NCBI GenBank assembly: GCA_043228905.1
Contig: JBHGNT010000016.1
Coordinates: 8,494,001 to 8,558,000, forward strand
Length of the DNA stretch: 64,000 nucleotides
Origin: Azolla caroliniana
Taxonomy: Eukaryota > Plantae > Polypodiophyta
Reading direction: 5' to 3'
The translations under genes and the position numbers were made by a program. Every line of letters begins with the position of its first letter. Within the stretch, counting starts at the first letter, position 1. Below are positions 2,866 to 64,000 of this stretch, in pieces. The notes beneath the pieces were generated by a model. It was not told the origin of the DNA and did not search any database. It saw only the letters and a list, made by a program, of their open reading frames with translations.

Positions 2866-3534
2866 TAGAAGTTCGGAAACCGAATGGCTCAAAACTCACT
2901 ACCACTCCCAATAATGTAGAAATACATATATATATACACCCACAATCTTTTTTAACCCTTAATGACTTTATCACAATGGACGAGCCGATTGGTGTATGAT
3001 CCAATCGTGCGTTATACTGACAGAACGAGAAGGTTCGTGTCAAGCTAGCTTCGATCGAAGTTATTGATCGTCGAGAAGTGTTCCAGTCGAGGGATTTCTG
3101 AACGTCGAGAGAAGACCGTTGATGTTTCCGATCAATAAGTTTTTGGCATAGGCTTTGTGGGATCGACGTGCAAAGCATTGTCCCACGGGCGTGCCAGGTG
3201 TTACCCATATAGGTATACGGGAGGGTTAAGTGTAATGTGAAAGGTGTAATGTGGAATATGAAATGTGAATGTGTGAGTGTGTGAGTGTTAGGTGAGGTAA
3301 GTAGGTGTACCTACGTCCATTCAACTTTTTGTAAAGATCTTATATAAATCGTCACTCATGGGGCATGAAAATATGGAATATTGAAGCTACCCACAAATAG
3401 TGTCTGTCTCGATTCTCTCTCTCTCTCTCATTCGTTCTCTCTGTGCATCTCATCTCTCCCTCTCTCCTCTCACACTCGAACCCCCTTGGGAGGGGGGTGG
3501 AGCCGATCTCTGCTCCACCCCCCACCCATAAACA
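2866..3534 (+). mobile_element. 3' end of a putative non-autonomous LTR element: tRNA-like module (3157-3196) followed by an LTR (3199-3534)
   Basis: The LTR runs TGTTACCC...CATAAACA with TATATAAA at ~3341 and a CT-rich tract. It is preceded by TCCCACGGGCGTGCCA-gg. Its right end abuts Gypsy RNase H codons (GYAQVKRELWG). Confidence 0.6.
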
Positions 3535-5352: not shown

Positions 5353-5823
5353 TGTCGTAGTGTACTTTGTGCACTACGTAAAATATGTGTGGAGTACCCG
5401 ATTGACTAAGTGTAAAGAAATAGGAGAAAATACTACAATAATTATATTACATGCATGGGGTAGGATTTGAACCATGTACCTCCATGTTAACAATTTTAAG
5501 CCTTACCATTGTATTAACACATTATGTGTTTTAAAGTTATTACGAATTGTGAGTTCTAGACCGTGAGGTCAATACAAGGAGTGCGAACGATATACAATCG
5601 GTGGGTGAATGTGAGATTAAGAGTGAGAATTATATATAGAGAGAGAGATAGATAGATAGAGATAGAGAGAGAGAGAGAGAGAGAGATATGTACAAAGTTT
5701 AGAGAGAGAGAGAAATAGACTAAAAACTAATTCATATTAAGAAACTTAAAAAATAATACAAAGAAATGGTCGATGTGGCAAACTAGTTTAGAATTGGAGG
5801 GGTTTATATAGGGAAGATAAGGG

Positions 5824-5888
<65 letters not shown>

Positions 5889-6633
5889 TGTGTGTGTGTG
5901 TTCAAATTTGATGATGTAGGAGATATGGGGTTTGATATATTTGGTGTGGGATAGAAGATTTTTTGGAGTTATTTGAAAAACATGTAGGGGAGTGTGAGAG
6001 AGAAAGAGAGAGGAAGGGTAGGAGAGAAGTGTGTGAGGTGGGAGTTAGGGATGGTGAAGTATGTTAGAATGTATGGAGATCTTTGAAAAAAGGAGGGGGG
6101 TAGGAAGAATTGGAGGGTATATTGGAAATTAAAGTGGAGGAGGAAAGGGTAGAGTGAGATTAAGAAGAATGAAAGGGGGAGGGGTCCGAGAAAATTACTA
6201 AAAGAGGGAGGGGTATGAATGTAATTCTAGAAAAAAGGAAGGGGGAAAGGGGTAGATTGAAATTAGTGAACGAGACAGGGGTAGAGTAAATTGACAAAGT
6301 GGGAATGAAGTGAAAAGATCACCAAGAACGATTCAAGCGCACCCAAATCGTTTCATATACTTGGCGTGAGTTAGGGAAAGGTAGGGGTAAAGTTAGAGTG
6401 GCAATGAAAAAGTAAAGGGAGGGGTAGAAGATCAAATTAGGAAAAATAAGGGGGAGGTGATGGTTAGAAAAAAATAATAAAATTTGGAAACAATAAAAGG
6501 TGAGGGGAGGGGTAGGATTAGAAAATAGGAAAAAGGAGAATGAGGGGAAGAGGCTAAAAATTAAGAGGTGAGGGGTAGAATTGGAAAATAGGAGAAACTG
6601 AATTAGGGGAGGATGCTAAAAGTTAAAATGTGA

Positions 6634-6915
6634 GGGGTAGAGTTAAAGATAAGGAAAAGTAAGGGGAGGGTATAGTGAAAATATTGAAAAGTTTGGGAAG
6701 GGGTAGAGTTAAAGATAAGGAAAAATAAGGAGGAGGATATAGTGAAAATATGGAAAAGTTTGGGAAGGGGTAGAGTTAAAGATAAGGGAAAGTAAGGGGG
6801 AGGGTATAGTGAAAATATGGAAAAGTTAGGGGAGGGGTAGAGTTAAAGATAAGGAAAAGTAAGGGGGAGGGTATAGTTGAAATATCGAAAAGTTAGGGAA
6901 GGGGTAGAGTTGAAA
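6634..6915 (+). repeat. G-rich tandem repeat, 66-67-bp unit (two ~33-bp subunits), about 4 copies
   Basis: GGGGTAGAGTT(A/G)AA recurs at 6634, 6700, 6767, 6834 and 6901. Confidence 0.9.
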
Positions 6916-7424
6916 ATAGGTAAGGGTATGTTGAGAATTAGGTAAAGATAAAAGAGGGGTAAAGTTAATATAAAGAGAGGTTGTAATTCTTGGTGATCTT
7001 TTCACTTCATTCCCACTTTGTCAATTTACTCTACCCCTATCTCGTTCACTAATTTCAATCTACCCCTTTCCCCCTTCCTTTTTTCTAGAATTATATTCAT
7101 ACCCCTCCCTCTTTTAGTAATTTTCTCGTACCCCTCCCCCTTTCATTCTTCTTAATCTCACTCTACCCTTTCCTCCTCCACTTTAATTTCCAATCTACCC
7201 TCAAATTCTTCCTACCCCCCTCCTTTTTTCAAAGATCTCCATACAATCTAACATACTTCACCATCCCTAACTTCCACCTCACACACCTCTCCTACCCTTC
7301 CTCTCTCTTTCTCTCTCACACTCCTCTACATGTTTTTCAAATAAGCCCATAAAATCTTCTATCCCACACCAAATATATCAAACCCCATATCTCCTACATC
7401 ATCAAATTTGAACACACACACACA

Positions 7425-7499
<75 letters not shown>

Positions 7500-7512
7500 C
7501 CCTTATCTTCCC

Positions 7513-7520
7513 TATATAAA
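7513..7520 (+). promoter_or_regulatory. TATA box upstream of the hammerhead motif
   Basis: CCCTATATAAACCC lies ~16 nt before stem I and ~58 nt before the predicted cleavage site. Confidence 0.4.
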
Positions 7521-7535
7521 CCCCTCCAATTCTAT

Positions 7536-7593
7536 ATGGTCGTGTGCACTGATGAGCTCCTTACGAGCGAAACTAGTTTGCCACATTGACCAT
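7536..7593 (+). ncRNA. Minimal type-I hammerhead ribozyme
   Basis: Stem I 5' strand ATGGTCGTGTGCA (7536-7548); CTGATGA (7549-7555); stem II GCTC-cttac-GAGC; GAAA (7569-7572); palindromic mini stem III ACTAGT; NUH = GUU (predicted cut after 7578); stem I 3' strand TGCCACATTGACCAT (13 bp with 2 single-nt bulges). Confidence 0.8.
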
Positions 7594-7785
7594 TTCTTTG
7601 TATTACTTTTTAAGTTTCTTAATATGAATTAGTTTTTAGTCTATTTCTTTCTCTCTAAACTTTGTACATCTCTCTCTCTCTCTCTCTCTCTCTCTATAAT
7701 TCTCACTCTTAATCTCACATTCACCCACCGATTGTATACCGTTCGCACTCCTTGTATTGACCTCACGGTCCATAACTCACGATCG

Positions 7786-12377: not shown

Positions 12378-13352
12378 TAAAGGGTTGTTGTCGATTTTGG
12401 ATTTTCTAAATATTGGTTGAATTGATTATACTTGTGTGATCCACGATTTCCTATCTCTCTCTTCCAATCTATTGAAAGTTTGGGTTGATTTCTTGATATT
12501 CTTAATACTAATTATACTAACTCACTATACTTGTGAAATTCACGAGATTCCTACCTTTCCCTTTCATATTCTTATTAGTCTTAAAATTCTCCTCCTGCTA
12601 GTCCAAAGCCTAGACGGTTTCCACCCGACTCATGTAATGATCCAACATCGAAAGGCATGACACCAGAAGAACAAATCCCGTAGGTCACCATGGCGCCGAA
12701 CCCACCCTTGGATGCAGAACTAGATTCCCTCAGTGCCACGACGGAAGATATGACTGAAGGACCTAGGCAAGAAATGCCGCACGAAGAGCTGACACGAGAA
12801 GCTACGCACGAGGCAGAAGAGCAGCAAGTAGAACAGGCTCCAACCACCGCACCAGTAGAGGAAGGCCCGCAACAAGAACATGTGCAAGAGGCTGCACTAG
12901 AGACGACAGAACCCAATGGCCTCCCCGCACTAGAACTGACTGACTCTTGTATCTGTTTTCGTGTCGAGTTCACTTACTGTGTTGAGTCATATACGCTATG
13001 TATGTTGTGGCGTAAGGGGTCGGCTCTAACCATGTTCCTAATCTCCACAATCTCCATGATTAAGTTCACACTTACAACCTCAGGGTAGATGTTAAACACA
13101 GTGCTCGGCCACAACCGAGGAATAGGATCAACTCACAGAAAACAAGAAATACAAAATGCACGAAGACAATAGAGAGAAGAGTACACAGGATGTTTTACGT
13201 GGAAAACCCTAAATGGGAAAAACCACGGGAGTCCTCAAACTCCAACTATCACTATAAACAGAGATGTACAATGGTGAAGCTACAAGGCAACAACCTTGAG
13301 CTCACTGTCTTCGCCACAGGCGGCGGTAATACACAGAGGCAACGACCTCTTC

Positions 13353-13353
<1 letters not shown>

Positions 13354-13445
<92 letters not shown>
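13354..13445. repeat. (TC)46 microsatellite in the outer 3' LTR; (TC)13 in the 5' LTR at 23547-23572
   Basis: Direct count. Confidence 0.95.
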
Positions 13446-13447
<2 letters not shown>

Positions 13448-13565
13448 CTGCTCACTTAGCTTCCTCTAAGTGGAAAAACAAAAAAAATAAGTAACAGATG
13501 CAAAACTGTTTGCCCTAAGTCATATTTATACACATATGACTTTCGGGCTATTTACAAATATGGCC

Positions 13566-16239
13566 TCAAGGGCCCTTGGCAAACATATTCGCAAATATGT
13601 CCCCGCATCCGGATCTCTCTCCGGGTACATTCGTCATCCGGCTCCGTAGAGAGATGGGATGTCTCTCCAATCCGATCCTCTTCCGGCATGCTTCCAGCTT
13701 GTCGGGTGTGAGCACCTTGGTCAGCATATCCGACCCGTTCTCGTCCGTGTGGATCTTTGTCAGCACGAACTCCTTGTCTTCTATCCTTTCCCGGATCCAG
13801 TGATATCTTCGCTGGATGTGCTTCGTCCGGGAGTGATAGGCCGCGTTCTTCGCAAGGTGGATGGCACTCTGACTGTCGCAGTAGAGTCGGTACTCCTCCT
13901 GCCGGATACCGAGCTCTCTAATGAAGTCCTTCATCCATATTATTTCCTTGCCGGCTTCAACAACCGCCATGTACTCCGCCTCCGTGGTTGACAACGCAAC
14001 CGTCTTCTGCAGCCTCGACTGCCACGAAACAGCTCCCCCTGCATACGTCATCACATACCCTGATGTGGACCGGCTGGTATCTGCATCAGCCGACATATCC
14101 GAATCGGTAAACCCGTCGAGTTCGGGCTTACCGGAGCCGAATCGGAGGCACACGTTTGCCGTGCCCTTCAGGTATCGGAGTATCCACTTGGCCGCGTTCC
14201 AGTGCTCTTTGCCGGGATTGCTCATGTACCGGCTCACCACTCCAACTGCATATCCTATGTCCGGTCTTGTACACACCATTGCGTACATCAAGCTTCCGAT
14301 GGCAGAGGCATATGGTACTTTCATCATGTCCTCCTTCTCAGCCTTTGTCTTGGGGCTTTGCTTGCTGGACAACTTGCAGTTTGCCGGGAGGGTTGACCCG
14401 ACCGGTCTTGCTTCCGACATGTTGAACCGGTGAAGCACCTTTGTCACGTACTTCTCCTGTGACATCCACAACTGCTTCTTCTTCCGGTCCCGGATGATGT
14501 GCATCCCTAGTATTTGCCTCGCCGGACCCAGGTCCTTCATTGAGAAGGTTCGGTGAAGCGCTTTCTTCAGCATCCGTATCTTGACCTGGTCCCGTCCGAC
14601 GATCAACATGTCATCCACGTACAGGAGGAGTATTAGAGAGTCTCCTCCTTTGAACTTCTTCACAAACACGCAGTGATCGGACTGCGTTTTGTGGTACCCT
14701 TCGTCGGTCATGAAGGAGTCGAACTTCCGGTACCACTGCCGGGGAGCTTGCTTCAGTCCGTAAAGGCTCTTCTTCAACCGGCATACCAGGTGCTCCTTCC
14801 CTTTCTTCTCGAATCCTTCCGGTTGCTGCATGTAGATCTCTTCTTCAAGGTCACCGTGAAGGAATGCCGTCTTCACGTCCATCTGTTCTACCTCGAGGTC
14901 CATGCTTGCCGCTATGCTCAGCACCGTCCGGATGGAGGTCATCTTCACTACCGGGGCAAATATCTCGTCGAAGTCGACGCCCTTCTTCTGCTGGAACCCC
15001 TTCACCACGATCTTGGCTTTGTATCTCGGGGGGTTTCCGGCATCTCCCGGTTTCAGCTTGAACACCCACTTGTTTCGAAGTGCCCGCTTTCCTTTCGGCA
15101 ACTCCACAAGTTCATATGTGTGGTTCTCATGCAGGGAATCCATCTCCTCCTGCATGGCACTTAACCACCTACGGCTATGGGTGTCAAGCTTTGCTTCTTC
15201 AAAACTCTCCGGCTCCCCCTCGTCGGTTAGCAGCACGTGCTCTGGTTCCGGAAAGCTCCGGGGGGCCCTTCTCTCTCTTAGAGGATATCTCCGTTCCGGA
15301 GCTTCGGTAACCGGCTCCTCCGTTTCCTCTTCATCCGAATCCATTCCGGGATCGGGGCCGGTTCCGGTATCAGTTTCATCTTCCTCGGCCGGTTCTGTTT
15401 CTTCACCGTCTTCGGCCGGATCCTCGAGTGCTAACCGATCCCTTGCCGGTCGGGACTGCTCCTCGTAGAGTTGATCCTCACCGGTCGACTTGGAGCTCTT
15501 CATCTTCTTCTCCGACTCCCAGTCGGCGAGTGTCTTGTCCTCCATGAAGATGATATCACGACTCCGGAATATCTTTTTGTCGACCGGGTCCCATACTCGG
15601 TAGCCGAACTCGTCATCGCCGTAGCCGAGGAATATGCATGGCCGGGTCTTTGGATCTAGCTTTGCTCTCCGGTCCTTTGCCACATGCACATATGCGAGGC
15701 ACCCGAACACCTTCAGATGCCGGTAGGATACTTCCCTTCCGGTCCACACTCTCTGCGGCGTGTCTCCGTCCAAAGGTACTGAGGATGATCTGTTTATCAC
15801 GTATGTCGCCGTCGACATTGCCTCAGCCCAAAACCCCTTGGGTAATTTTGCATGCGCCAGCATACTCCGGACCCTCTCCATTATGGTCCGGTTCATCCTC
15901 TCGGCCAGCCCGTTCAGTTCCGGCGTCTTTGGCACAGTAAACTCGAGCAGGATTCCCATCGAACGGCAATACTCCTCAAATTGCCCTCGGTATTCTCCTC
16001 CGTTATCCGCTCGTAGTGCTTTCAGCTTCTTGCTGGATTCTCTTTCCACTCTCGCGTGGAGTTCTTTGAAGACGGACAATACTTGGTCCTTTGTCTTCAA
16101 CGGTGCCGTCCACAGCTTCCGGCTATGGTCATCTATGAATGTTACGAAGTACTGGGCTCCGCCATGTGACTTCGTTTCTACCTGACACACATCAGTGTGT
16201 ACCAACTCCAATGGTACACTACGTCTCATCGATGGTCTT
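13566..16239 (-). CDS. Outer Copia pol, C-terminal part (integrase, RT, RNase H)
   Basis: LELVHTDVC, LRADNGGEY, QMDVKTAFLHG, LYVDDML, RTKHIQRRYHWIRE, SDMLTK. The ORF is open and runs into the truncated LTR. Confidence 0.9.
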
Positions 16240-19200
16240 TGTTGGAGAGACAAGGCCGTGTCGATGCGGAAGATCAAATAGCATTCGATTCGAGTTGAGT
16301 ACCTGCGTATGACAGTCTTTGCAAGATCGTGCACAGAGAGAGAGAGAGAGAGAGAGAGGGCGCAAAAGACTCTTTCTATTCCATAGAAAACAATAATACA
16401 ACCAACCTTACAAAAAGGTTACTAGGTCACTTTATGTAGTGACCGACTTAGGGCAACTACCATTTATGCTAATTACACAAATGGCCCAAACTTGAGCTAT
16501 ACAAAAGGGATAGTGTGAATACGTCCATTATACACTTGTATTCGACACTCCCCCGTAATGGGCGTATACATGGGTTATCTAAGATTACAGGTATAAACCT
16601 AGGTTCTCGGACATATCAGTTTTTGTTCGAGTCGGCAGGGTCCGAAGGCAGAAGACCGAACTGGTTGGGTCGGAAGAGTTGAAGCCGATCATTAGGGAAC
16701 TGATGTCGGTTGTCCGAAACCATCCTGCGCTGTGTCCGGCTCTAACCGGACTGGTTTGTCGTTACGCCCATCTGATGCCGAAGGGACCGAAAGCGGTCTG
16801 CCGAAAGACACTTGGTCATTCCATCTGCGACATTGTCGGTTGTGGATATTTTCTCTAGACCGATTTTCCCTGAAATGACGCAGTCCCGAACGAAGTGATA
16901 TCGAACGTCGATATGTTTGGAGGCGTTGTGGTGAACCGGATTTCTCGACAAGGCAACAGCACCTTGACTGTCGCTATAGACAACTGGAGCCGAGTCATGG
17001 TCGACTTGTCGAAACGTGTGCGCCAGCCGGCCGAGCCACAAAGCTTCTTTTGCAGCGTCGGACGCAGCTACATATTCTGCTTCGGTCGTTGAGGTCGCTG
17101 TGCACTCCTGAAGTTTCGACTTCCACGAAATTGCTCCATTGCCGAATTTGAAGCAGTATCCAGTTGTTGATTTCCGACTGTCTATACAGCCGGCGAAGTC
17201 CGAGTCGGTGTAACCGACTACGCCTGAGGTTGAGTTCGGACCGAAAAGAATGCCGTGATCTTTTGTGCCAGCCAGATATTTGAACACATGCTTGACTGCG
17301 TTCCAATGCGATCGGCCAGGATTGTGCATAAATCTGCTAACGACTCCTACGGCATGAGAGATATCAGGCCGTGTCACGACCATCAGGTACATAAGGGAGC
17401 CGACTGCCGGTGCATACGGTACCGACTTCATATCTTCCCCCTCCGGACCGGATGTCGGGCAGTCTCGCTGAGAGAGCCGAAGATTCATGGGGAGCGGGGT
17501 TGAAGCAGATTTGGCTGATTGCATGTTGAAGCGTTCCAAGACACGTCCGATATAGTCGGTCTGAGACAAAAAAAGATGTCGTTTATCGCGATGCCGACTA
17601 ATCTTCATGCCAAGTATGTGTCGTGCCGGACCGAGGTCCTTCATGGCAAACTTCAACCGCAGTTGCCGAATGAGATCGGCAAGTTCGCCCGCGTGGCGTC
17701 CAGAAATTAGCATGTCGTCCACGTAAATGATGAGGAAGATGGGTGATCCATCTTGAGTTGTGTTGGTAAAAAGACAATGGTCCTCATCGCTTTTTGAGAA
17801 GCCGATCGATTGGATGAAGTCGTCGAACTTCTTGTACCATTGTCGCGGTGCCTGTTTGAGGCCGTATAGACTCTTCCTGAGTCGGCAGACTAGATGTTCT
17901 TGGCCAGTTGCCACGAAGCCTTTTGGCTGCTCCATATAAATTTCCTCTTCAAGATCACCATGGAGGAAGGCTGTTTTGACATCTAGCTGAATCAGCTCCA
18001 AGTTGTCGGCTGCCACTACGCCGAGTAGAAAACGAAGGGTTGTCATTTTTACCACTGGTGAAAAAATCTCGTCGAAGTCGACGCCATATTCTTGTCGGAA
18101 GCCCTTCGCAACTAATCTGGCCTTGTACTTTGGGGTGGTCGAATCAGACGTCTCTTTTAGTCGATAGACCCACTTGCAAGGAAGAGCACGTCGATTCTTA
18201 GGTAATTCGACCAGATCCCAAGTCTTGTTTGTCCGAATGGAGTGCATTTCCGACTCCATCGCCAGATGCCAGGTGGCTGAATCGACAGATGTCGATGCTT
18301 CTTCGTAAGACGTCGGTTCGCCGGCGTCGATGAAGAAAATTCCAGGAGAATACCTCTCCGGAGGTTGCGACAGTCTTTCGGATCGTCGAGGTATGATTGG
18401 ACTGGTCGTATCGGGTATCGAGGTCGGATGGTCCGAAAGCGAATTATTCTGTTGTGCCGAGTCAGAGTTGTCCGAGTCGGTAGTGGAAGGTTCAGCTACC
18501 CGTGAAGCTGACCGTGTGTTAAGAGCGGGGCCTTCTTGAAGGGTCGGCACATCGGAAAATGTTACCCTTCGGACTTCAATCGGTGTTTTGACTGATGGAT
18601 TCATAGCCGACTCGTTGAACACAACGTCCGAACTTCGAACGATTTGTCTGCGTTCGGGGTCCCAGAGTCGGTATCCCATTTCGCCGTCTGATCCATATCC
18701 AAGGAAAATGCATTTCCTGGACCGAGGTGCAAGTTTTCGGCGATCATCTTTCGGAATAAGGGCGTACGCCTCGCATCCGAAGATCCTCAGCTTGTCGTAA
18801 TTCGGCTTACTGCCGATCCATAGTTCTTGAGGAATTTGAAGTCCTAGAGGTCTGCTTGGCGACATATTGATTATGTGTACTGCCGTGAGTAGAGCCTCTG
18901 CCCAGAAGCCATCCGACAGTCCGGAGTGTTGGAGCATGGAAACTATCCGTTCTTGGATTGTCCGATTCATGCGTTCTGCAATCCCGTTTTGCTCCGGACT
19001 GTGTGGTGCCGTAAATTCACGTCGGATGCCGCGTTGTCGGCAGAATTTGACGAATTCTTCTGATTTGAACTCTCCCCCATTGTCGGTCCGAAAGCATTTC
19101 AGTTTTCGGTCGGTTTGATTTTCTACCATAGCGAGCCAATCGGAGAAGACCGAGAAGACGCGATCTTTGGTGCGAATTGGATAAGCCCACACCTTTCGAG

Positions 19201-21768
19201 TCGAATCGTCAATAAAACTGACGAAGTAAGAGGCACCACCGAGAGACTGATGCGGCATTGGGCCACAGACGTCCGAGTGGACTAAATCGAGAGGTCTCGT
19301 TTCTCTTGGTGCTGATGTCGGGTGTGATGCGGCTGCTTGTTTGCCATACTGGCAATGTTCGCAGAATTGATGGTCCGAGAAGGAGAGTTTAGGGATGTAT
19401 CCGGCTCTAGATAGGTGCGTAATGCCGGCCTTGCTGAGGTGTCCTAATCTTCTGTGCCATAGTGATGACACAGGAATATCCACCAAAAACAGGTTACCCT
19501 CTCTGAGCGTAACATGTAACGGATACAGTGAGTGTATCTTGGGTCCTCTAGCAAGCAGGAGGTTCCCCCTGTGGAGTGTCCACCCTCCCGAAGAAAAACC
19601 GGCACGAATGCCGTCTTCATCTAGTTGTCCGACTGAGATCAATGGCCTTGAGAGTTCGGGTACATGTCGAACATTGTGAAGTACAAGTGTAGAGCCACCT
19701 GCAAGGTTGAGCTCTACTGTGCCGATTCCAATGATGTCACAGTGTTGCGAGTTGCCGACTCGAACTGAGTCGGAGTGACGGATCGTATATTGCCGAAATT
19801 GGGATCGATGAGGAGTCACGTGAAATGACGCGCCCGAATCTAAGAGCCATGTGCTCGATTCTTCAGTCGTGAGCAGAACTTCTGATCCGACTGGATTTTC
19901 GATTGATAGTATATTCGGGTCGTTTGGTAGCACATCAGCTGAGAAGCTGATGTAATTGATCTCCTCATGCCGGCCACTCTTCTTATCTGATTTCTGAGAC
20001 TTGTCGTTCTTGTTCTTGAGTGCGCGGCAGTCGGCTTTGATGTGTCCGGGTTTCTTGCAGTAGTTGCAGATTCGATTATCCCGTGACTGGCTCCGTCTTC
20101 GCTGATTGTTCGGCTGCCGTGAGGAATCTCTTCCTCGTATGTTCGATCGGTCTGTCGAACCTTGTACTACATAGGCGTCGTCTGTTGAGTCTTTGGCGAA
20201 AGACTTTCTCCGAGCTGCTTCGGTCAGAATTGCGCTCGTGACTTCGGAGTATTTAACAGCCGTGGTTGACGCGTTGCACACGGTTGTGACGAAAGTTTCC
20301 CATGATGAGGGAAGGTTGCTCATGAGTATCATTGCTCTGAGTTCATCCTCGATTGCCGTCCCCTGAGATGAGATTTGGGAGCTTATGCTTTCGTACTCAT
20401 TGAGATGTGGTTGAACCGAATCTGATTCTTTCATCCTCAAGTTGTAGAGGCGCCGGATCAGGAACATCTTCGTTGCAGCGACCTTCTTTTCGTAGGTGTC
20501 CGACAGTGTTTTCCACAGTTCGAATGCTGTCGAACACGATTGCACCGTAAAGTATACCGATTCCGATAGGTGCATCCGAATCGTGGCGCGGACGATTCTG
20601 TCCAGCTTCTGCCACTCGATTGGTTTGTATCCTTCTGGAGGTTCTTCATTTTCGATGGGATCGATTTGCCCCTTGACTATGAGATAGTCCTGCATTTGCT
20701 CCTTCCAGAAGTTGAAGTTCGATCCATCGAACTTTCGTAGACTCATTTCTGACGAGCCGGATGTTGATGCCATCAAATTTGGTTTCGGTTGACGAAGCTC
20801 GGTTCGGTGTTGACTACGAACCTTGTTGGAGTGCAGCCGGTTGGCTCACCCGATATCGTTCTAGTCGGATTTGAACCCGAGTCGGTTCGGCTTCGGATAT
20901 ATGTATTGTTGAACTTGCTCGAATTGACTCCTGTAACTTGAGGGACAGAACCGACTGGTCTTCCCGAATGTTGCCGAGTCGGAGTGAGCCCGGTTCGCTT
21001 CCGAATATATATGCCAAATACCGATTATTGAAACCGATTGTCTGGACCGATTCTGCTTCGGGTGACTGCAGCGACGAGAGAGACGGATCCAACTGATCCT
21101 CCCGAATGTCGATCAGTCGGATGAAGCACGAATTGGGGTTGTTGTCTTGAGACCGATCTGCACCGAGTGGTTACAATGAGCGGCGAGCAGCGTTTGATGA
21201 CCTCTTCGGATGCCGTTTAACCGAGTGGAGCACGATCGTGTCAATGTTGCACAAGGGGATTTCACCTCGAGCGGTTACGATCACAAGGAACAGAGTACAA
21301 CCTGCTGGCTTACTCCAAGCAAAGATGATCTAACACGATGAGATGCAAGCCTCGTTTTTCTTCTTCTTCTCCCTTCTTCGAATGACGCAAGAAACCGAAC
21401 GCTGTGCAGGCTGAGACGACAGCCGACAGCGGGTTGAGGAACCTTCGCTCTGATACCAAATGTTGGAGAGACAAGGCCGTGTCGATGCAGAAGATCAAAT
21501 AGCATTCGATTCGAGTTGAGTACCTGCGTATGACAGTCTTTGCAAGATCGTGCACAGAGAGAGAGAGAGAGAGAGAGAGGGCGCAAAAGACTCTTTCTAT
21601 TCCATAGAAAACAATAATACAACCAACCTTACAAAAAGGTTACTAGGTCACTTTATGTAGTGACCGACTTAGGGCAACTACCATTTATGCTAATTACACA
21701 AATGGCCCAAACTTGAGCTATACAAAAGGGATAGTGTGAATACGTCCATTATACACTTGTATTCGACA
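16240..21768 (-). mobile_element. Intact, very young Ty1/Copia LTR retrotransposon (5529 bp)
   Basis: TSD GTCTT (16235-16239 / 21769-21773); 308-bp LTRs at 16240-16547 and 21461-21768 with one visible mismatch; PBS tRNA-iMet 21447-21458; PPT ACGGGGGAG 16548-16556. Confidence 0.98.
16742..20776 (-). CDS. Copia gag-pol polyprotein, 1344 aa, intact
   Basis: Uninterrupted ORF: gag, CNYCKKPGHIKADC, WLLDSGASFH, LVHSDVCGP, RTDNGGEF, QLDVKTAFLHG, IYVDDML, KHIDVRYHFVRD, ADGMTK. Confidence 0.97.
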   Translation of the reverse strand: MMASTSGSSEMSLRKFDGSNFNFWKEQMQDYLIVKGQIDPIENEEPPEGYKPIEWQKLDRIVRATIRMHLSESVYFTVQSCSTAFELWKTLSDTYEKKVAATKMFLIRRLYNLRMKESDSVQPHLNEYESISSQISSQGTAIEDELRAMILMSNLPSSWETFVTTVCNASTTAVKYSEVTSAILTEAARRKSFAKDSTDDAYVVQGSTDRSNIRGRDSSRQPNNQRRRSQSRDNRICNYCKKPGHIKADCRALKNKNDKSQKSDKKSGRHEEINYISFSADVLPNDPNILSIENPVGSEVLLTTEESSTWLLDSGASFHVTPHRSQFRQYTIRHSDSVRVGNSQHCDIIGIGTVELNLAGGSTLVLHNVRHVPELSRPLISVGQLDEDGIRAGFSSGGWTLHRGNLLLARGPKIHSLYPLHVTLREGNLFLVDIPVSSLWHRRLGHLSKAGITHLSRAGYIPKLSFSDHQFCEHCQYGKQAAASHPTSAPRETRPLDLVHSDVCGPMPHQSLGGASYFVSFIDDSTRKVWAYPIRTKDRVFSVFSDWLAMVENQTDRKLKCFRTDNGGEFKSEEFVKFCRQRGIRREFTAPHSPEQNGIAERMNRTIQERIVSMLQHSGLSDGFWAEALLTAVHIINMSPSRPLGLQIPQELWIGSKPNYDKLRIFGCEAYALIPKDDRRKLAPRSRKCIFLGYGSDGEMGYRLWDPERRQIVRSSDVVFNESAMNPSVKTPIEVRRVTFSDVPTLQEGPALNTRSASRVAEPSTTDSDNSDSAQQNNSLSDHPTSIPDTTSPIIPRRSERLSQPPERYSPGIFFIDAGEPTSYEEASTSVDSATWHLAMESEMHSIRTNKTWDLVELPKNRRALPCKWVYRLKETSDSTTPKYKARLVAKGFRQEYGVDFDEIFSPVVKMTTLRFLLGVVAADNLELIQLDVKTAFLHGDLEEEIYMEQPKGFVATGQEHLVCRLRKSLYGLKQAPRQWYKKFDDFIQSIGFSKSDEDHCLFTNTTQDGSPIFLIIYVDDMLISGRHAGELADLIRQLRLKFAMKDLGPARHILGMKISRHRDKRHLFLSQTDYIGRVLERFNMQSAKSASTPLPMNLRLSQRDCPTSGPEGEDMKSVPYAPAVGSLMYLMVVTRPDISHAVGVVSRFMHNPGRSHWNAVKHVFKYLAGTKDHGILFGPNSTSGVVGYTDSDFAGCIDSRKSTTGYCFKFGNGAISWKSKLQECTATSTTEAEYVAASDAAKEALWLGRLAHTFRQVDHDSAPVVYSDSQGAVALSRNPVHHNASKHIDVRYHFVRDCVISGKIGLEKISTTDNVADGMTKCLSADRFRSLRHQMGVTTNQSG

Positions 21769-23251
21769 GTCTTGAGCGGAAGGAGGTCCGGTTCTGCTTA
21801 CCGGCCAGACAGTCGGTACACTTCCCCAAGTGTACGTGCTTTACCGGTATCAGGTTGTCTTCGGCAAGCCTCTTCATCCCCTTCTCGCTCATGTGGCACA
21901 GTCTCTTGTGCCACAGCTCACCGGCAGTGTCAGCTGCCACGTTCAGCTCCTCCGGACATAGCCGGGAATTCATCAGGTACAGTGTGTTGACCTTCCGGGC
22001 CCGAGCCACTATCAGGCTCCCTTTGCTGAACTTCATGACACCGTTCCGGATGCTACCCGTGTAGCCTTCATCGTCTAGCCTCCCGGCCGAAATCAGGTTC
22101 AATCGAACCTCCGGAACGTGTCGGACATCCTTCAGCAGCATCTTGCATCCGGTTGATGTCATCAGCCACACGTCTCCTATGCCGGCAATCCGGCATGTTC
22201 CTTCATTTCCCATCCGGACACAGCCGTTCTCACCGGCTGTGTAGGATGAGAAGTATTTCTTCTCCGGGGTCAGGTGGAACGACGCTCCGGAATCGACCAC
22301 CCAGGTCATCTCTTCACCGGCAAGGTTCAGCTCCCTCTCTTCGGTAATGAGCATTATCTCTTCTTCACTTGCCGCGAGTGCCGTCGTTCCTTTCCGGTCC
22401 TGCCCTCGCCGATCCGGACCTCTCCGGTCCGTGGCTCCCCGGTATGCACCATTTCGCTCCGGTGACTTCTTCGAATCGGTACCGTCGGTTCCGTTGTCTT
22501 TCCGGAAATGCCGACAGTTCTTCTGAAAGTGCCTCGGCTTCCCACAGTAGAAGCATGTAGGTCTTCCCCTCGACTGCGACCATGTCCCCGACTTCTCCCG
22601 TCTTTGCGGACTCCGGTTCCGTTGTCTTCCCCGTTCCGATTCGGTAAGCAGCGCCTTCGAGTCGGAGGCCGGTTCTTTATCTCTCCGACGCGCTTCTTCA
22701 TTTAGAATACTTGTCTTTACCGTTAGTAAAGACAAGTTCTCTTCCTTACAGGAGGTGCTGAGAGTAACTACCAAATTCTCCCAGCTCTCCGGAAGGGTAC
22801 ACATCAGCATGATGGCTTGCATTGCGTCATCCAACGGGAACTTGATCGCCGCAAGCTGGTTCACGAATCCCATGAACGTGCTGACGTGTTCGACCATGCT
22901 CTCGCCGTCCCGGTACTTAAGATTCACTATCTTCCTCATCAGGGAGGTCCGGGTCAGAGCATTCTTCCTCTCATACAGTCCGGACAGCTTCTGCCACATC
23001 TCATAGGCGTTCGTATCGTTCGCCACATGTTGCAGAACACTTACATCGACATATTGCCGGATCGTCGCTACGGCTTTCCGGTTCAGGAGCTTCCACTCCG
23101 ACTCTATTACCCCCTTTGGTATCTCGGCATTGTCGATCGGTTCGTACAGGTCTCGGACGATGAGAAGGTCTTCCATCTTTATCTTCCAGTCGGCGTAGTT
23201 CTGTGAGTTCAACACCATCATGCCCGGAGGCCCACTACCGCCGCCTTCCAT
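21769..23251 (-). CDS. Outer Copia gag-pol, N-terminal part (gag, zinc knuckle, protease, GAG-pre-integrase), interrupted by the nested element
   Basis: NYADWKIKMEDLL, CFYCGKPRHFQKNC, WVVDSGASFH, LWHKRLCHMS. It rejoins 16234-13566 in frame once the inner element and one TSD copy are removed (4152 nt, 1383 aa). Confidence 0.9.
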
Positions 23252-23754
23252 TTTCTGTGTTACCGTCGCTCTGATACCACTTTGTTAAACACAGTGCTCG
23301 GCCACAACCGAGGAATAGGATCAACTCACAGAAAACAGGAAATACAAAATGCACGAAGACAATAGAGAGAAGAGTACACAGGATGTTTTACGTGGAAAAC
23401 CCTAAATGGGAAAAACCACGGGAGTCCTCAAACTCCAACTATCACTATAAACAGAGATGTACAATGGTGAAGCTACAAGGCAACAACCTTGAGCTCACTG
23501 TCTTCGCCACAGGCGGCGGTAATACACAGAGGCAACGACCTCTTCGTCTCTCTCTCTCTCTCTCTCTCTCTCGGCTGCTCACTTAGCTCCCTCTAAGTGG
23601 AGAAACAAAAAAATAAGTAACAGATGCAAAACTGTTTGCCCTAAGTCATATTTATACACATATGACTTTCGGGCTATTTACAAATATGGCCTCAAGGGCC
23701 CTTGGCAAACATATTCGCAAATATGTCCCCGCATCCGGATCTCTCTCCGGGTAC

Positions 23755-31170: not shown

Positions 31171-34100
31171 TCACATTTCTTCAGCATCTCCCAAGACCTC
31201 TCCGCTCGCGGCAAAAGAAAGATGTGGAACAAAACCTCTGCCTCCGAACATCGGGCGCATATATGCATTATCAAATTTTCTCCAGGTGCGGTGCACAGAA
31301 GACAATGCTGCTTTCCTCCATATTGTTAGAAATTTTCCCCTTGAGTTATTGTTCTCTTCAGCTGACGTGTCTTTCCACAAGAGAGGAGCCTGTGTGTCTG
31401 AACTAAACGAGTCTTTCGGACTTGATGGTTCAGAATTGTCGATGAACGACCTGAGATGTGGGGGAAGGATCCTCTGCACTAATGGTTTGGTAAGGAATCC
31501 AAAGACCTTCAGAAGCAGCAGAGTTGAAACAAAAACAGAAAAGTTAATAGAATGATCCTGCTTTACAAATGAATAAATAATTCTATGCCTCTATAATGTG
31601 ACATGAATGCTTAAACACAGAGAAGCAACAATTCAAGAGGAATTATAGAAAAAAAGACTGTTCTAATAAACCAAATCACAAACACATGCATATATGCTTA
31701 ACCTGAATATATTGTTCTGAACATATGCATAACCTGAATGTATTCTTACCAGCATATGCATAACCTGAATGTATTGTTATGAGCATATGCATAACCTGAC
31801 CATATACATAACCTGAATGCATTGTTATGAGCATACACATAACCTGAACGTATTGTTATGAGCATATGCTTAACCTGAAGTTCTATTTTCCTAGACCTGA
31901 AGGCCTTCAATCATGACAAATATGACCACACAATAGCAAGAAACAAACAGCATGCTGAGCATATAGAAAAAAAGACTGCTCTAATAAACCAAAATCACAA
32001 ACACGTGCATATATGCTTAACCTGAATATATTGTTCTGAACATATGCATAACCTGAATGTATTCTTACTAGCATATGCATAACCTGAATGTATTGTTATG
32101 AGCATATGCATAACCTGACCATATACATAACCTGAATGCATTATTATGAGCATACACATAACCTGAACGTATTGTTATGAGCATATGCTTAACCTGAAGT
32201 TCTATTTTCCTGGACCTGAAGGCCTTCAATCATGACAAATATGACCACACAATAGCAAGAAACAAACAGCATGCTGAGCATATAGAAAAAAAGACTGTTC
32301 TAATAAACCAAAATCACAAACACATGCATATATGCTTAACCTGAATATATTGTTCTGAACATATGCATAACCTGAATGTATTCTTACTAGCATATGCATA
32401 ACCTGAATGTATTGTTATGACCATATGCATAACCTGACCATATACAGAACCTGAATGCATTGTTATGAGCATACACATAACCTGAACGTATTGTTATGAG
32501 CATATGCATAACCTGAAGTTCTATTTTCCTGAACCTGAAGGTCTTCAATCATGACAAATATGACCACACAATAGCAAGAAACAAACAGCATGCTGAGCAT
32601 GTGAAATATACGGTATCTAAACTTACCACTGTACTGAAAAGCACAACAATTATGGTGCTTGTGATCATTGTTGCATTGATTGAGCTTGTACCTGTGAACT
32701 GCAAGACAAAACCCATGCATGCTTAGGACAAACTACCATTTCCGACATTACATACAAGACTTGAGAACACAACCTTATTATAGGCCAAGGCAATAGAAAC
32801 AGCCCCTCTCATTAGACCAGCCCACCAGATAATTACCTATATAGAAGAGTAAAAAGTGATTTTCAATTGTAATGTTCAAATGTTTTTAAAGATATATCAA
32901 TGTCACAAAGAAACGCCACAATAGCCTATTGACACCCAATAATGATTACATTTTATAATGTTTCTCATCTTGAAGATATACCAAAAAAAGCAAGAAATAG
33001 AAGCAACACAGAAAAAACCAACAAATACACCACAATCGCTTATCCCACTAAAGAGAACCATAAAACGATAATCTATCTACCTGTTTTCCAGCACTAATCT
33101 TGGTACGGGGACCTTGTTGCAGTAGGTTCGACAAAGCAGATAAGGGAAATACAAACGCTGCCCTTCCAAGCAATACAACAAACATCAGTGTTGCAGAAAG
33201 TCCAGCAGAAGTGGCAGCACTACATATCATAAATGCTCAGTTCTAATCAACTCTACATATTGAAGTTCATGGTAAATTTTTGGAAAAGAAACCATCATTT
33301 TTTATTAAACAGATCTTACCTTACATCTGATCTACTCCACTTGTCTTTATCAAGAGCATCCATCCCAACATAAAGGAATATGAAGGTTTCAGCGATGAAT
33401 GACAGTGTTGCGAATGTGTGCCTGTAGCCATGCCATAAACAACTTAAATATGTTCATAAAAAATCTATTACTCCTCAGAGAATGTTTTTGCACTAACCTT
33501 GTTGTTATCTTTGAGCTTTCTGTTACATTATGCCATGTGTAGTGAGACATAACAATTCCACAGAAAAAAACAGTAAGAATCCCACTGAGGGAAAGCAGCT
33601 GCAAGTACACACATGTTAGCAGGGGAACCACATACCAGACCTCTTGAAAATGAGTAAATAAGTGTGCATGTGTGTGTTTAACAAATTCACCTCAGCAATC
33701 ATGTAAGAAAAGTAAGCCATCAAAATCATTATTGCTATCTCTCGATCAGTTGAATGCCTGCAAATACATGGATTGACTCAAACAAGATAAATACCCAATC
33801 CCACAATTTAAATTGTCCTACTCCTTAAACTCATCCTTGCTATAATGATGTAACTTTTTTGGGACAACCATAAACTCATCCTTCCTGGAATGGTGTAACT
33901 TTTCAAGGTACGTTGCTACTTCCACAAGTTGCTGTACTAGTTCCCAGTGCCCATACTAAATTCATGCCTGAAATTTTACGCATAATAGCCCACACTATTT
34001 TATAACTATTTAAGTCTGATCATAATCCTTTGCAACAATTTCCCAAGGAGTAGACAAATCATAAGACCAAATTTTCCATCGGTCAGGTCATGCAAAAGCC

Positions 34101-51591: not shown

Positions 51592-51763
51592 CTCATGCAC
51601 ATCTAGTGTGCATGAACACTTTTTTTAGAGGATAAAAAGCATGATGCTTGCCATGTTATAAGCTATACTAAGCCTCTCCCATCACTATATAAGGAGGGAA
51701 GCAAAATGTAATTGGGGGGTGTGGAAATTTTGGGTTATTTCTTGGGAAAACTATTATGGTTTC
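51592..51763 (+). mobile_element. Fragment of the TGTCGT Gypsy LTR family, including its TATA box
   Basis: CATGCACATCTAG.GTGCATGA and CTCTCCCATCACTATATAAGG match the reverse complement of 61585-61730. Confidence 0.7.
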
Positions 51764-60000: not shown

Positions 60001-61149
60001 CGGTTTCCGGCTGTAAGGCCCGCACAAGTGTCTGACCAACATGATTTCAGACTGCCCGAAAGCTGATTTCTCTCTGGAGAAGGTGAGCCGCGCGCTCTCG
60101 AGCCTCCGCATCACCTTCTCGCAGTCTTCGATGTGGTCTGCCACAAACATCCGGCACCCGTCCGGTCCAACCGACTCATCCTTATCCTCCACCGGACATC
60201 CTTTGATCGGGATGTCATCCAAAAACGGCATGGTGATGTCCGGGATGCAGTCCCTTAGCACCTTATTCATTGCGTTCACCATGTGCACCACCGAGTTGGT
60301 CCCTCCTTGCGGTAGGGTACACATCCGAACTAAATCGAGAGGAGTTCGCATCATTGTAATGTCCCTACTCTCTACGGCTAGTTGGAACTGGTCGTACCCC
60401 AAATACAGATCGCTAACCGAATAGATTAACCTTCTAGCGAAGGCCTCCACAAACTCGTCAATGGTCGGCCCGATTCCTGCATTCCGAATAGTCACTTTAA
60501 TGACCGGCTGCAGGTCCTGAATGAAGCGTAGTGCGCCATTCTTCTTTGGCACGGTGAACCACCAATTTGAATATGGGGCACTCCACGGCTCGAGAATGCC
60601 CATCTCTACCTTTTGTTTCAACAGCTCCATCAACTTCGGGATGTGAGCTTTGGGTACTGGAGTCGGTTTGAGGTTCCACGACACATGCGGTACTGTAAAG
60701 ATAACCATTGGTGTTGTCTGTCTGGCCGGACTAGCCTCAACACAGGTGTCTATCCGACACTTCTCCAAAGTGGTGGTAAGGATTGGATGATAGGTTACAC
60801 GCGTAAGATGATTACAATTAAGCACAGACGGTAAACAATACGAGATACAGATAAACAGGCAATAATTACTATTGTATTGCTTCTGTCCCCCCTTTACAAA
60901 TCATCGGATCCTTTTATAGGCATCCGACAAGGTTACAATCGGTGCGCTTAGGCAACTGACATCCGAATCGGTCCGGATCCGGATCGGTACCACTGTACCG
61001 GATCCGTCCCTCCGAATAATAATTCTACTATTATTTACTTCCTATTATCCGATCCGATTCCGCCTTCCCACTTGTCCTTGCTCTTCTGACCGGCCAGCAC
61101 ATGGCACGCCCGTGGGAAAGTGCCTTGCACTTCGAATCCACTCCCGGCC

Positions 61150-62850
61150 TCAGTCTTCCTCCAAAATATCGAGCACACTCTGCTCGATGGTGTCAAGTGG
61201 TGCTTCTTCCTCCTGTTCCTGTTCCTTGCCTGCCTGGTCTCCGACCTCCGGTTGGGTAGGCTGTTCCGTAAAAATTTGCTGCTCCGGCTCTGCTTGATTC
61301 TATGGTGCCTGTGTCGTGCCTTTCGGCTCCGGATCGTTTGCGTGAGTCGGGTGGGAATCACCAGGGTTTTGGACTAGGAGAAAGAAAAATACAAATAAAG
61401 CTAGTAAAGAATAGGTATAAAGAGTTATAAGATAAAAATCTCGTGAATCCCACGAGTTTAGTATATTTAGTCAATATTTAGGTAGTAAGAGAGAATTATT
61501 TTAGCAAATTCGTGAATCCCACGAATATTTTAGATTGATTGATCATTATAGAAAAATAATCAACAAAAACTACAATGTGTTCCCCATCCTTATATAGTGA
61601 TGGGAGAGACTAAGCATAACTACATGCTTTTTCTAATATGTTCATGCACACTAAATGTGCATGTGATGCTTTTCTAATCCTTGCTTTTATTTGCTAAATA
61701 TAGTGCTCATGCACGCTAGATGTGCATGAGTCACTTTTTAGTTGCTTGCGTTTTTCTATAAAATATTCACGCACTCTAAAAATGCACGATTTACCTTTTA
61801 GTAAAGGTAGGTGCAAATAAAGCACTTATAGTTATTAAATCTATTTGTAGAACACTAAAGATAAGGTAGCATAATGGTAAAGTTGAGATTTGGCTACGTG
61901 GAGGTACAAGGTTCGAATCTTGCCCTATGCACGTGATAAATATCTTGATATTCTTATTTTATTTATTTATATGTAATTAAATCGGTTATATTATTTTTAC
62001 TTTTTCACGTAGTGTACGAAATACACTACGACACCGGTGCTTCCTCACCGCTTCGTCCGGGTTCTTCCTGTTCTCCCTCCGTTCCTGGCTCTGTTCTGTT
62101 ACCGGTGTCGCTTTCTCCGGTCTCGACTGGTCGACTCGATATGCCTCCTTCCTCTGCTCTGGTGTCTTCCGGTCTCAGCTCTTCTTCTTCTCCGGCATCG
62201 GTCGACTCCTGCTCTTCTTCAAGTTCGTCTTCGGGTATTCCTCGTCGGGGTTGTTCGGTGTCGGTTGGTTCATCTTCAGCCGGTCGCTCTCCCTCACTTA
62301 TCGTGATTGGTGTCGTTCTTCCCTTAGCTTCCTGTCGTAACCGGTCCTGCTCGTATCTCTCCAACTCCAACTGAGTTGCGAGCTGCCCGTCATCCAACCT
62401 CTCTACCAACCCTCGGATTTCTTTGAGGTGTTCTTCTGCTAAAGTGTAGAAATCCTCCGACAATTCTTCCCGAATGGCGACGATACTTTCTTCATCCATC
62501 TTGTAGAACTTGTCACCGGTCTTCCTCCGATTCTCGGCATCCGCTCGGAGTGTCTGCAGCTCGGCTGCCTGTTGTGACCACTACTTCCATAGCTTTTCCA
62601 TACTTTCGTTGATGCTTGCCTGAGCTCGGGTACTCCATCCTGACATGATGAGCTTGATTCGGTCAACCCCTGCCTTAGCATGCGCATAAGCTTCCTGCTT
62701 TTCCTTCCTTGCCCATTTTATAATGTCGGCCATTATCTGAGCCTGGGCCTCGTAATCTGCTTTCTGCTTTTCATAGGTACTCTGCAGTTTGCTGATCGTG
62801 AAGGTCGATTTTTCCTTTTCTTCATTCCTGATCTTGGATCGTGGTCGCCA
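61150..62850 (-). pseudogene. ~325-codon coiled-coil/acidic ORF of the non-autonomous element, disrupted by two TAG stops and a solo LTR
   Basis: ORFs 62581-62913 and 62026-62499 share a frame across one TAG. Removing the solo LTR and its 4-bp TSD continues EEAPAP*NQAEPEQ...LDILEED*. No gag/pol motif was recognised. Confidence 0.6.
61312..62033 (-). mobile_element. Solo LTR of the TGTCGT...ACGACA Gypsy family
   Basis: Inverted termini TGTCGT/ACGACA; flanks cctg/ccgg (4-bp TSD with 1 mismatch); homologous to 5353-5545 and 12378-12662. Confidence 0.8.
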
Positions 62851-64000
62851 AAATAGTGTTGTCTGTCTGGCCGGACTAGCCTCAACACAGGTGTCTATCC
62901 GACACTTCTCCAAAGGGGTGGTAAGGATTGGATGCTAGGTTACACGCGTAAGATGATTACAATTAAGCACAGACGGTAAACAATACGAGATACAGATAAA
63001 CACGCAATAATTACTATTGTATTACTTCCGTCCCCCCTTTACAAATCATCGGATCCTTTTATAGGCATCCGGCAAAGTTACAATCGGTGCGCTTAGGCAA
63101 CCGACATCCGAATCGGTCCGGATCCGGATCGGTACCACTGTACCAGATCCGTCCCTCCGAATAATAATTCTACTATTATTTACTTCCTATTATCCGATCC
63201 GATTCCGCCTTCCCACTTGTCCTTGCTCTTCTGACCGGCCAACAATTGGTTCCACAATCGTCGGGTCCAGGCACCCGATCTCCTCCGATGAGAATGCGAA
63301 GGCCTTCCCTTGCCTCCCGAGCATTCTCCGAAACCAGTCCTCCTCCACCGGTAGTAGGAAGCCACCCCCACCGATCTTGAGCTCCTGTAGCATTTCGTTG
63401 GTGAACTGGTGTCCTATGCCGGCCGGATTTCGTAAACTTGGGTCCGACGCGACCCCCTTCATCTGTTCCTCGCTACCCTTTGGCAAGGGAGCTGCGACTG
63501 GCCTCACCTTTCGGTCCATAGTCATGTACTTCGTACCTACGCAGGCCGTTCGATCTGACTCGACCTTTTCCCCAAAGTTGGCAATGACTTCGTAAATTTC
63601 TACGGACCTAACCGGAATCACCCGGTCTTCACATGGGCCTCCTTTGAAGACCTTCCTTATCTCTTCTAGGGTGTTGTCGAAAGAGACTGCCTCCACGGCG
63701 CTGCTAATCTCTTCGTCGGGGTTGAGAGCTCCGCACGCCCTAAGACACTTCTCTGCTCGCTTCCTTTCTTGGTTGTTGACGCCGGTTATCGTACAACCTC
63801 TGCTATCGGAGAACCAAAACTTCCTACCTATGGCACACGTGTGGGGTTCTTCCGGGGTGTCCGGACTATCGCGGCCCCACGCCTTGATAGCCCTCTCTAA
63901 AACTCCTCTTGGCCATCACTACCGAGAGTCTCACGGGTGCGCTCGTGGTTCGGTCGTACTGTCAAGAATTGGACGGAGTGATGCCCATCTTGGCTTTTCA

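Follow-up and report, generated by a model that had tools for sequence, protein, structure and literature searches.

Plus-strand priming from a polypurine tract (PPT) is treated as the rule for retroviruses and for retrotransposons with long terminal repeats (LTRs) in the parts of two published accounts on which we draw (PMC5371799; PMC10886601). Here we describe an LTR element of Azolla caroliniana, lying at 60712-63244 on the minus strand of a 64,000-nt stretch of DNA (the window: assembly GCA_043228905.1, contig JBHGNT010000016.1, forward-strand positions 8,494,001 to 8,558,000), in which the place of the PPT is taken by a cassette resembling the 3' end of a tRNA. The aligned junctions of related loci show that a structured tRNA-end cassette stands clade-wide where the PPT would be, and we consider it probable that a second host tRNA, likely a tRNA-Arg, anneals to minus-strand cDNA at the cassette and primes plus-strand synthesis.

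Several described systems share parts of this layout, and our statements about them, here and below, extend to the cited parts of each source. Athila elements have a tRNA-Asp/Asn primer-binding site (PBS), an AT-rich spacer of 3-6 nt ahead of it, and a conserved PPT junction (Neumann 2019, PMC6317226; ATHILAfinder, bioRxiv 10.64898/2026.03.20.713144), and Retand and Ogre frequently carry antisense open reading frames (ORFs) in their 3' part together with tRNA-Arg PBSs (PMC6317226). In Ty3 and Drosophila gypsy, second sites on the genomic RNA are complementary to the minus-strand primer tRNA and act in first-strand priming (PMC1635307). Helenus TRIMs (miniature retrotransposons with terminal repeats) have a tRNA-derived Pol III promoter inside the LTR and keep both PBS and PPT (Kojima 2024, PMC10886601). 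A search of the open-access literature, with subscription journals outside its scope, found no paper describing a tRNA site in the PPT's place.

The clade of the window element agrees with canonical LTR priming, e.g., that of Ty3 (PMC5371799), in its TG..CA LTRs, 5-bp target-site duplication (TSD), 5' PBS, gag-reverse transcriptase (RT)-RNase H (RH)-integrase (INT) order, and intact RNase H and integrase motifs, but differs in having no PPT and in carrying a tRNA-sense cassette 2 nt ahead of the 3' LTR. By its domains and junctions it falls among the Ty3/gypsy non-chromoviruses that lack aRH; its TSD and PBS spacer are Athila-like, whereas its PBS type and its want of a PPT are not. With Athila/OTA elements (PMC6317226; bioRxiv 10.64898/2026.03.20.713144) it shares the lack of an aRH or chromodomain match, the 5-bp TSD, an AT-rich pre-PBS spacer of 5-6 nt, and a long extra ORF in the 3' part, and its RT-RH region clusters with non-chromovirus proteins from liverworts and ferns (50-54% identity); unlike Athila, it has Arg-like PBSs (TGGCGACCAC and TGGCACGCCCGGT), no PPT, and, in a quick tree, a branch of its own. 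The bipartite PBS of Ty3 and gypsy likewise involves a second tRNA-related site near the 3' end and extended T-arm pairing, but the clade's cassette has the opposite polarity (tRNA-sense on the pol strand) and stands in the PPT's place. Helenus and TRIMp3 also combine tRNA-like sequence with an LTR element, whereas the cassette lies outside the LTR, comprises the 3' 28 nt only, replaces the PPT, and occurs in autonomous elements as well. The tRNA-Arg PBS type is common to the clade and to Tat elements (Ogre, TatIII, Retand); in contrast to Ogre, Retand, and TatI-III, the pol regions of three related contigs (L001, L058, and L066) had no match to aRH or second RNase H families, and the extra ORF is in sense.

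Results

The window element was put forward, in an original prediction made from the letters of the window, as a complete insertion with two opposing tRNA primer sites and no PPT. Its parts, and those of a second cassette at the other end of the window, are listed here.

60712-63244, minus strand: element, two TG..CA LTRs within TSD ATTGG
60707-60711, no strand: left TSD ATTGG; empty site bridged by contigs
63245-63249, no strand: right TSD ATTGG, a perfect match to the left one
60712-61099, minus strand: 3' LTR, 388 bp, oriented by the gene order of relatives and the TATA box
61100-61101, minus strand: 2-nt spacer from cassette CCA to LTR start (2 nt in 48/48 motif-bearing loci)
61102-61118, minus strand: tRNA 3'-end-like segment TCCCACGGGCGTGCCA (genomic-RNA sense) at the PPT position, putative plus-strand primer site on minus cDNA
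61119-61131, minus strand: inserted hairpin, 4-5 bp stem and 3-nt loop, with compensatory changes between subclades
61132-61141, minus strand: segment like the T arm of a tRNA, GTGGATTCGA in the window copy, GTGGGTTCGA or GTGGGTCCGA in relatives
61150-61307, minus strand: extra ORF, C-terminal end; its stop codon falls ~9 nt short of the cassette
61312-62033, minus strand: 722-bp solo LTR from an unrelated gypsy family, nested here by a later insertion and flanked by 4 bp on each side (CCTG/CCGG)
62034-62837, minus strand: extra-ORF remnant, residues ~732-995 of P0001, 83% identical, one in-frame stop
62840-62850, minus strand: ordinary minus-strand PBS TGGCGACCAC(G), tRNA-Arg-like (isoacceptor assumed)
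62851-62856, minus strand: AT-rich 6-nt spacer CTATTT
62857-63244, minus strand: 5' LTR, 388 bp, TATAAAA at 63063-63057
3157-3198, plus strand: second copy of the cassette with its 2-nt spacer, ahead of a different LTR (TGTTACCC at 3199), part of a second, decayed element

The outline of the insertion stood up to re-examination: both LTRs (60712-61099 and 62857-63244) are 388 bp long with TG..CA ends and differ by 10 mismatches (97.4% identity), and the element has ATTGG on either side. The element interrupts the RT region of another gypsy element, and contigs from public runs (four runs, three coded organisms, three studies) both bridge the empty site and include copies lacking the 722-bp solo LTR, whose presence within the element had been correctly recognized. 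The two junctions were also as proposed. Motif B (TGGCGACCAC, minus strand 62850-62841) directly follows CTATTT, and neither junction has a purine tract, the purine fraction being 0.53 over the last 15 nt and the longest run 3 in the last 20 nt. Motif A (TGGCACGCCCGTGGGA, plus strand 61102-61117) does lie 2 nt from the left LTR, but its extent had been drawn too short, since it is part of a cassette of ~40 nt (61102-61141).

The relatives with which the element was compared are metagenome contigs, of which at least 95 were confirmed and 80 kept (counts out of 80 are among the matches listed); they are collapsed assemblies with close numbering, probably from one campaign and few host species. 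An ordinary PPT in other copies, or a motif that was not conserved, had been named in advance as grounds for abandoning the proposal. What was found is motif A, a 16-mer, with at most 3 mismatches in 48 of the 80 loci (32 exact), and motif B in the contigs of all 4 public runs with no letter differences listed. The distance from CCA to the LTR was 2 nt in 48/48 of these loci, with TG next in 46/48, and in all 48 the longest purine run within the last 20 nt was 3 nt or less, so that none had a polypurine tract. Between ORF stop and LTR, neither the window copy nor L066 had a purine run of 6 nt or more. The other 32 loci comprised 5 with a cut or damaged cassette, 1 with an opposite-strand cassette from another copy, and 26 in which both the cassette and an LTR of the family were missing. 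Three LTR queries located 28 LTR starts, 27 of them after the cassette; the remaining one was a 5' LTR with flanking DNA. As controls, two unrelated elements in the window retain the G-rich tracts GGAGGGGGTGAA and GGGGGAG at the LTR edge; a third was unreadable, its LTR end lying inside a GA repeat.

The cassette is maintained across subclades that differ in their LTRs and 5' PBSs. Within the window the 16-mer recurs exactly at 3181-3196, beside a different LTR, where chance would be expected to give 0.02 matches even at 2 mismatches (two matches were counted, one of them the query). The junction of this second, decayed element (3157-3534, plus strand) resembles that of L068 (86% over 63 nt), and tblastn upstream of it found no match to the extra ORF. 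At two loci (L046:2397-2925 and L067:5010-5530), a single LTR has the cassette on its left and the 5' PBS on its right, a layout for which collapsed assembly, tandem copies, and one-LTR circles are alternatives.

Orientation of the element rests on its autonomous relatives. L066 reads 5' LTR, 5-nt spacer, TGGCACGCCCGGT, a gag-RT-RH-INT frame of 1,797 aa, extra ORF, cassette, and 3' LTR start, and thus bears out in an autonomous element the proposed pairing of a PBS after the 5' LTR with an inverted site before the 3' LTR. In L001, the contig closest to the window family, pol, extra ORF, and cassette follow one another on one strand, the contig stopping within the cassette. Given this one-strand gene order, the genomic strand is the minus strand of the window, which makes motif B the ordinary PBS and puts motif A where a PPT should be. 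Pfam searches of L066, L058, and L001 recovered the order gag-protease (PR)-RT-RH-INT, and RNase H and integrase motifs are intact in autonomous relatives. The minus-strand orientation first proposed from a TATA box and the ORF therefore stands, and the TATA boxes concur, TATAAAA occurring in the LTR on the minus strand only; the ORF alone was not a valid guide, being a piece of the extra ORF. Because antisense extra ORFs and tRNA-Arg PBSs are frequent in Retand and Ogre, the orientation was re-examined, and the opposite one, with an antisense ORF, was ruled out by the co-orientation of pol, extra ORF, and cassette in L001 and L066.

The window ORF is the C-terminal ~300 aa of an extra ORF of ~1,050 aa and is not Gag. 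In relatives this ORF, which is open in many copies, encodes a sense coiled-coil protein of 1,050-1,135 aa (P0001 and relatives; L001:4694-7990); the coiled coil is long, and both the N-terminal domain and the acidic end (LDILEED) of the protein are conserved. A Pfam search assigned it to no family, and a protein-atlas search gave unnamed clusters only at a score of 0.9, with Transposase_32 (0.87) and ATHILA (0.86) as weak leads. In the viral contigs scanned there was no relative of the extra ORF or of pol, and no exact cassette. Since the extra-ORF remnant abuts motif B directly at the junction 62837/62838, the window copy is an internal-deletion, non-autonomous derivative of an autonomous Ty3/gypsy clade, with gag-pol lost, rather than the complete insertion first described. 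Depth steps in run X1, which suggest that contigs cross this deletion junction, give a weak hint that the deleted form may itself be repeated; in other copies, seen as loose contig ends, motif B is followed by different internal sequence. The nearest named relatives of pol are from Riccia, Marchantia, and Adiantum (50-54% identity), and a quick RT-RH tree of 36 rows, built without REXdb references, placed the clade on its own branch among proteins of seed-free plants, near Athila-like proteins of angiosperms. One contig (L012:2240-2747) passes from the extra ORF into bacterial-looking coding DNA and is probably a chimeric assembly; the apparent LTR start there was discounted.

Read in RNA sense, the cassette runs from the T-arm segment (GTGGGTTCGA or GTGGGTCCGA) through a hairpin of 13 nt and a single variable base to the 16-mer. 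On 40 distinct rows (from 48 rows; the two window copies were added, and L055 and L069 were excluded for indels), the 16-mer carried 1.85 bits of information per base and the T-arm segment 1.52, compared with 1.22 for the insert and 0.36 for the upstream sequence. In the hairpin, two pairs vary on both sides (GC18/UA13 and GC17/AU15) among 33 sequences spanning both subclades; against shuffled alignments, the cell count was reached in 0/500 and the pair count in 98/500, and a tree of 46 rows reduces the changes to about three events. The T-stem, considered as self-pairing, showed no compensatory change in the same 33 sequences. At tRNA-matching sites (5 T sites, 3 A sites), T>C changes numbered 19 and A>G changes 1. 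Since T>C is the direction tolerated by wobble of tRNA-U with DNA-G, this excess favors an outside tRNA partner, and we regard it as modest support considering that most T>C rows come from one event. The commonest of these changes breaks the T-loop consensus. A further 26 changes were C>T or G>A and are uninformative because deamination produces them. The hairpin lies just 3' of the tRNA position that, by the numbering we assume, usually bears m1A58. An Rfam search with the L066 cassette gave no match.

To judge from its letters (TGGCGACCAC at window 62850 vs. TGGCACGCCCGGT at L066:1931), the 5' PBS has switched tRNA type between two subclades with the 3' cassette unchanged. Since the PBS varies while the cassette stays, the cassette's partner is not the 5' PBS. 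Priming from the element's own RNA as in Tf1 and Tcn1 was also considered and rejected, the longest match of the PBS to its own 5' LTR being 6 nt where 10 or more are required.

The tRNA 3' end implied by the cassette is backed by the 13-nt PBS of L066; relative to the end that this PBS implies, the cassette's 3' segment lacks one C. Candidate plant counterparts of the two motifs are tRNA-Arg(UCU) and tRNA-Arg(UCG). Scans for the implied end matched only prokaryotic and viral tRNAs, of many anticodons, and so give no pointer to the host isoacceptor; of 133 prokaryotic and viral loci called tRNA-Arg, 10 have this end (9 TCG, 1 TCT). When a prokaryotic tRNA-Arg 3' end served as a stand-in, the minus-sense cassette was predicted to form a three-way duplex of 11 + 6-7 + 10 bp at -31 to -36 kcal/mol, compared with -21 for the 5' PBS duplex of L066 (RNA parameters, no shuffled control).

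Within the window, ARAGORN called no tRNA, in the nested solo LTR or outside it, and an Rfam scan gave no match. The solo LTR has stretches resembling an A box and a B box (about 61865-61879 and 61910-61919, plus strand), possibly a tRNA-derived piece inside the LTR; its flanks, CCTG/CCGG, resemble NCGN, at which Phygy elements insert. A normal PPT is retained in the family of this solo LTR, and it has relatives at 5353-5510, 12500-12663, and 51592-51713. Other repeats include nested copia elements at 13090-23572 (LTRs 99.7% and 99.4% identical; the inner element has an open frame of 1,367 aa at 16742-20845), an inverted duplication of ~800 bp at 5546-7783 (87% identity, with a tandem-repeat core between the arms), and a unit of ~319 bp at 31644-32600, present three times in tandem at 97-98% identity and with sub-repeats inside.

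Discussion

A plus-strand primer must end at the left LTR start plus the two bases that integrase trims. The CCA of the cassette ends exactly there, which leaves two candidates for the primer, a tRNA and the element's own RNA, whose letters are identical at this place. We lean toward regarding the clade as an active plant LTR lineage without a PPT, in which host tRNAs prime both cDNA strands, the second within a bulged three-way junction that shields it from the element's own RNase H. Under this scheme, the minus strand would be primed as usual by a tRNA at the 5' PBS, and after strand transfer RNase H would remove the RNA from the cassette. The 3' ~28 nt of a tRNA would then pair with the exposed DNA in three stretches (11, 6-7, and 10 bp) interrupted by one bulged tRNA base and the DNA hairpin. 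RT would extend the CCA through the 2 nt and into the LTR, and finally RNase H would remove the tRNA and integrase trim the 2 nt. Considering that the RNase H residues are intact, protection of the tRNA:DNA hybrid is a real problem, and we speculate that the bulge and hairpin might supply it. The host would be expected to have one tRNA ending in ...GTGGGTTCGANTCCCACCGGGCGTG and one ending in ...GTGGTCG; in L066, a single tRNA would serve both strands.

The closest competitor, which we consider unlikely, is a non-purine equivalent of the PPT: a fragment of the element's own RNA, ending at CCA and helped by the hairpin, would survive RNase H and prime the plus strand, its tRNA likeness going back to the capture of a tRNA or PBS, or arising because RT recognizes it as it would a tRNA primer. 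The position and 2-nt spacing suit this equally well, folding of the plus RNA can give a hairpin resembling a T arm (-12.7 kcal/mol), and the standard mechanism, as set out in the cited part of the Ty3 review (PMC5371799), would suffice. It leaves unexplained, however, why some 26 tRNA-matching letters are nearly fixed when compensation is confined to the hairpin. Nor does the T-stem behave as a self-paired stem, its 5' T being replaced by C in 4 rows with the partner A invariant (40/40), and the T-loop consensus is lost in one subclade. Near-fixed tRNA-matching letters, changes that wobble tolerates, a lost T-loop consensus, and compensation in the hairpin alone together favor an unchanging partner outside the element, as tRNA priming would have it. 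Less probable still is a role of the cassette at the RNA level, be it 5'-3' pairing with the PBS (to assist strand transfer or priming by the element itself), packaging, or service as a Pol III B box, with the plus strand primed at another, unrecognized site. The cassette of the L066 subclade is complementary to the 5' PBS at 11/11 nt, and in Ty3 and Drosophila gypsy the genome ends are bridged via 3' tRNA-binding sites (PMC1635307; PMC5371799). In the window subclade, however, only 7/11 nt match, and 5'-3' pairing as a general constraint was rejected on this ground; moreover, the cassette is tRNA-sense in the RNA, so that a tRNA cannot pair there, unlike at the Ty3 and gypsy sites. The Pol III B box was rejected as well, the B-box-like letters becoming GTCCGA in one subclade. 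Also against an RNA-level role, CCA sits exactly at the required end of a plus-strand primer, and in the window copy and L066 the stretch from ORF stop to LTR has no purine run of 6 nt or more.

That a deletion, head-to-head recombination, or misassembly joined two ordinary PBSs, with the ORF antisense as in Tat, was entertained since the window copy really is a deletion derivative and since Retand and Ogre have the antisense 3' ORFs and tRNA-Arg PBSs already mentioned (PMC6317226). We consider it refuted, and at most a very slight chance: pol and extra ORF are co-oriented with the cassette next in L001 and L066, the cassette recurs in 48/80 loci with 27/28 LTR starts after it, both junctions recur across independent runs and contigs, and the TSD is perfect with an empty site in existence. 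Several points nevertheless weigh against a tRNA as plus-strand primer. RNase H acts on tRNA:DNA hybrids, which is a real mechanistic difficulty, and as the tRNA and the element RNA share their 3' letters here, the two primers cannot be told apart fully by sequence. Simple tRNA binding would not call for the fixed 1-nt difference from the tRNA end, and the duplex energies, which have no shuffled control, were obtained with RNA parameters and with a prokaryotic tRNA in place of the host's own. What was counted as covariation and substitution are rows rather than events, of which the tree shows about three in the hairpin and a single clade-wide T>C. The loci come from collapsed metagenome assemblies of narrow origin, and 26 of 80 lack both the cassette and an LTR of the family.

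Even if the element's own RNA were the primer, a conserved non-purine primer would be unusual. Such elements may be overlooked, or given the wrong orientation, by annotation tools that score the PPT. A clade that succeeds in several families with no PPT would prove the PPT rule breakable, and in it one could ask, within a defined system, how a tRNA primer on a DNA template comes to be accepted by RT and yet is not destroyed. If true, dual tRNA priming doubles the element's exposure to tRNA fragments.

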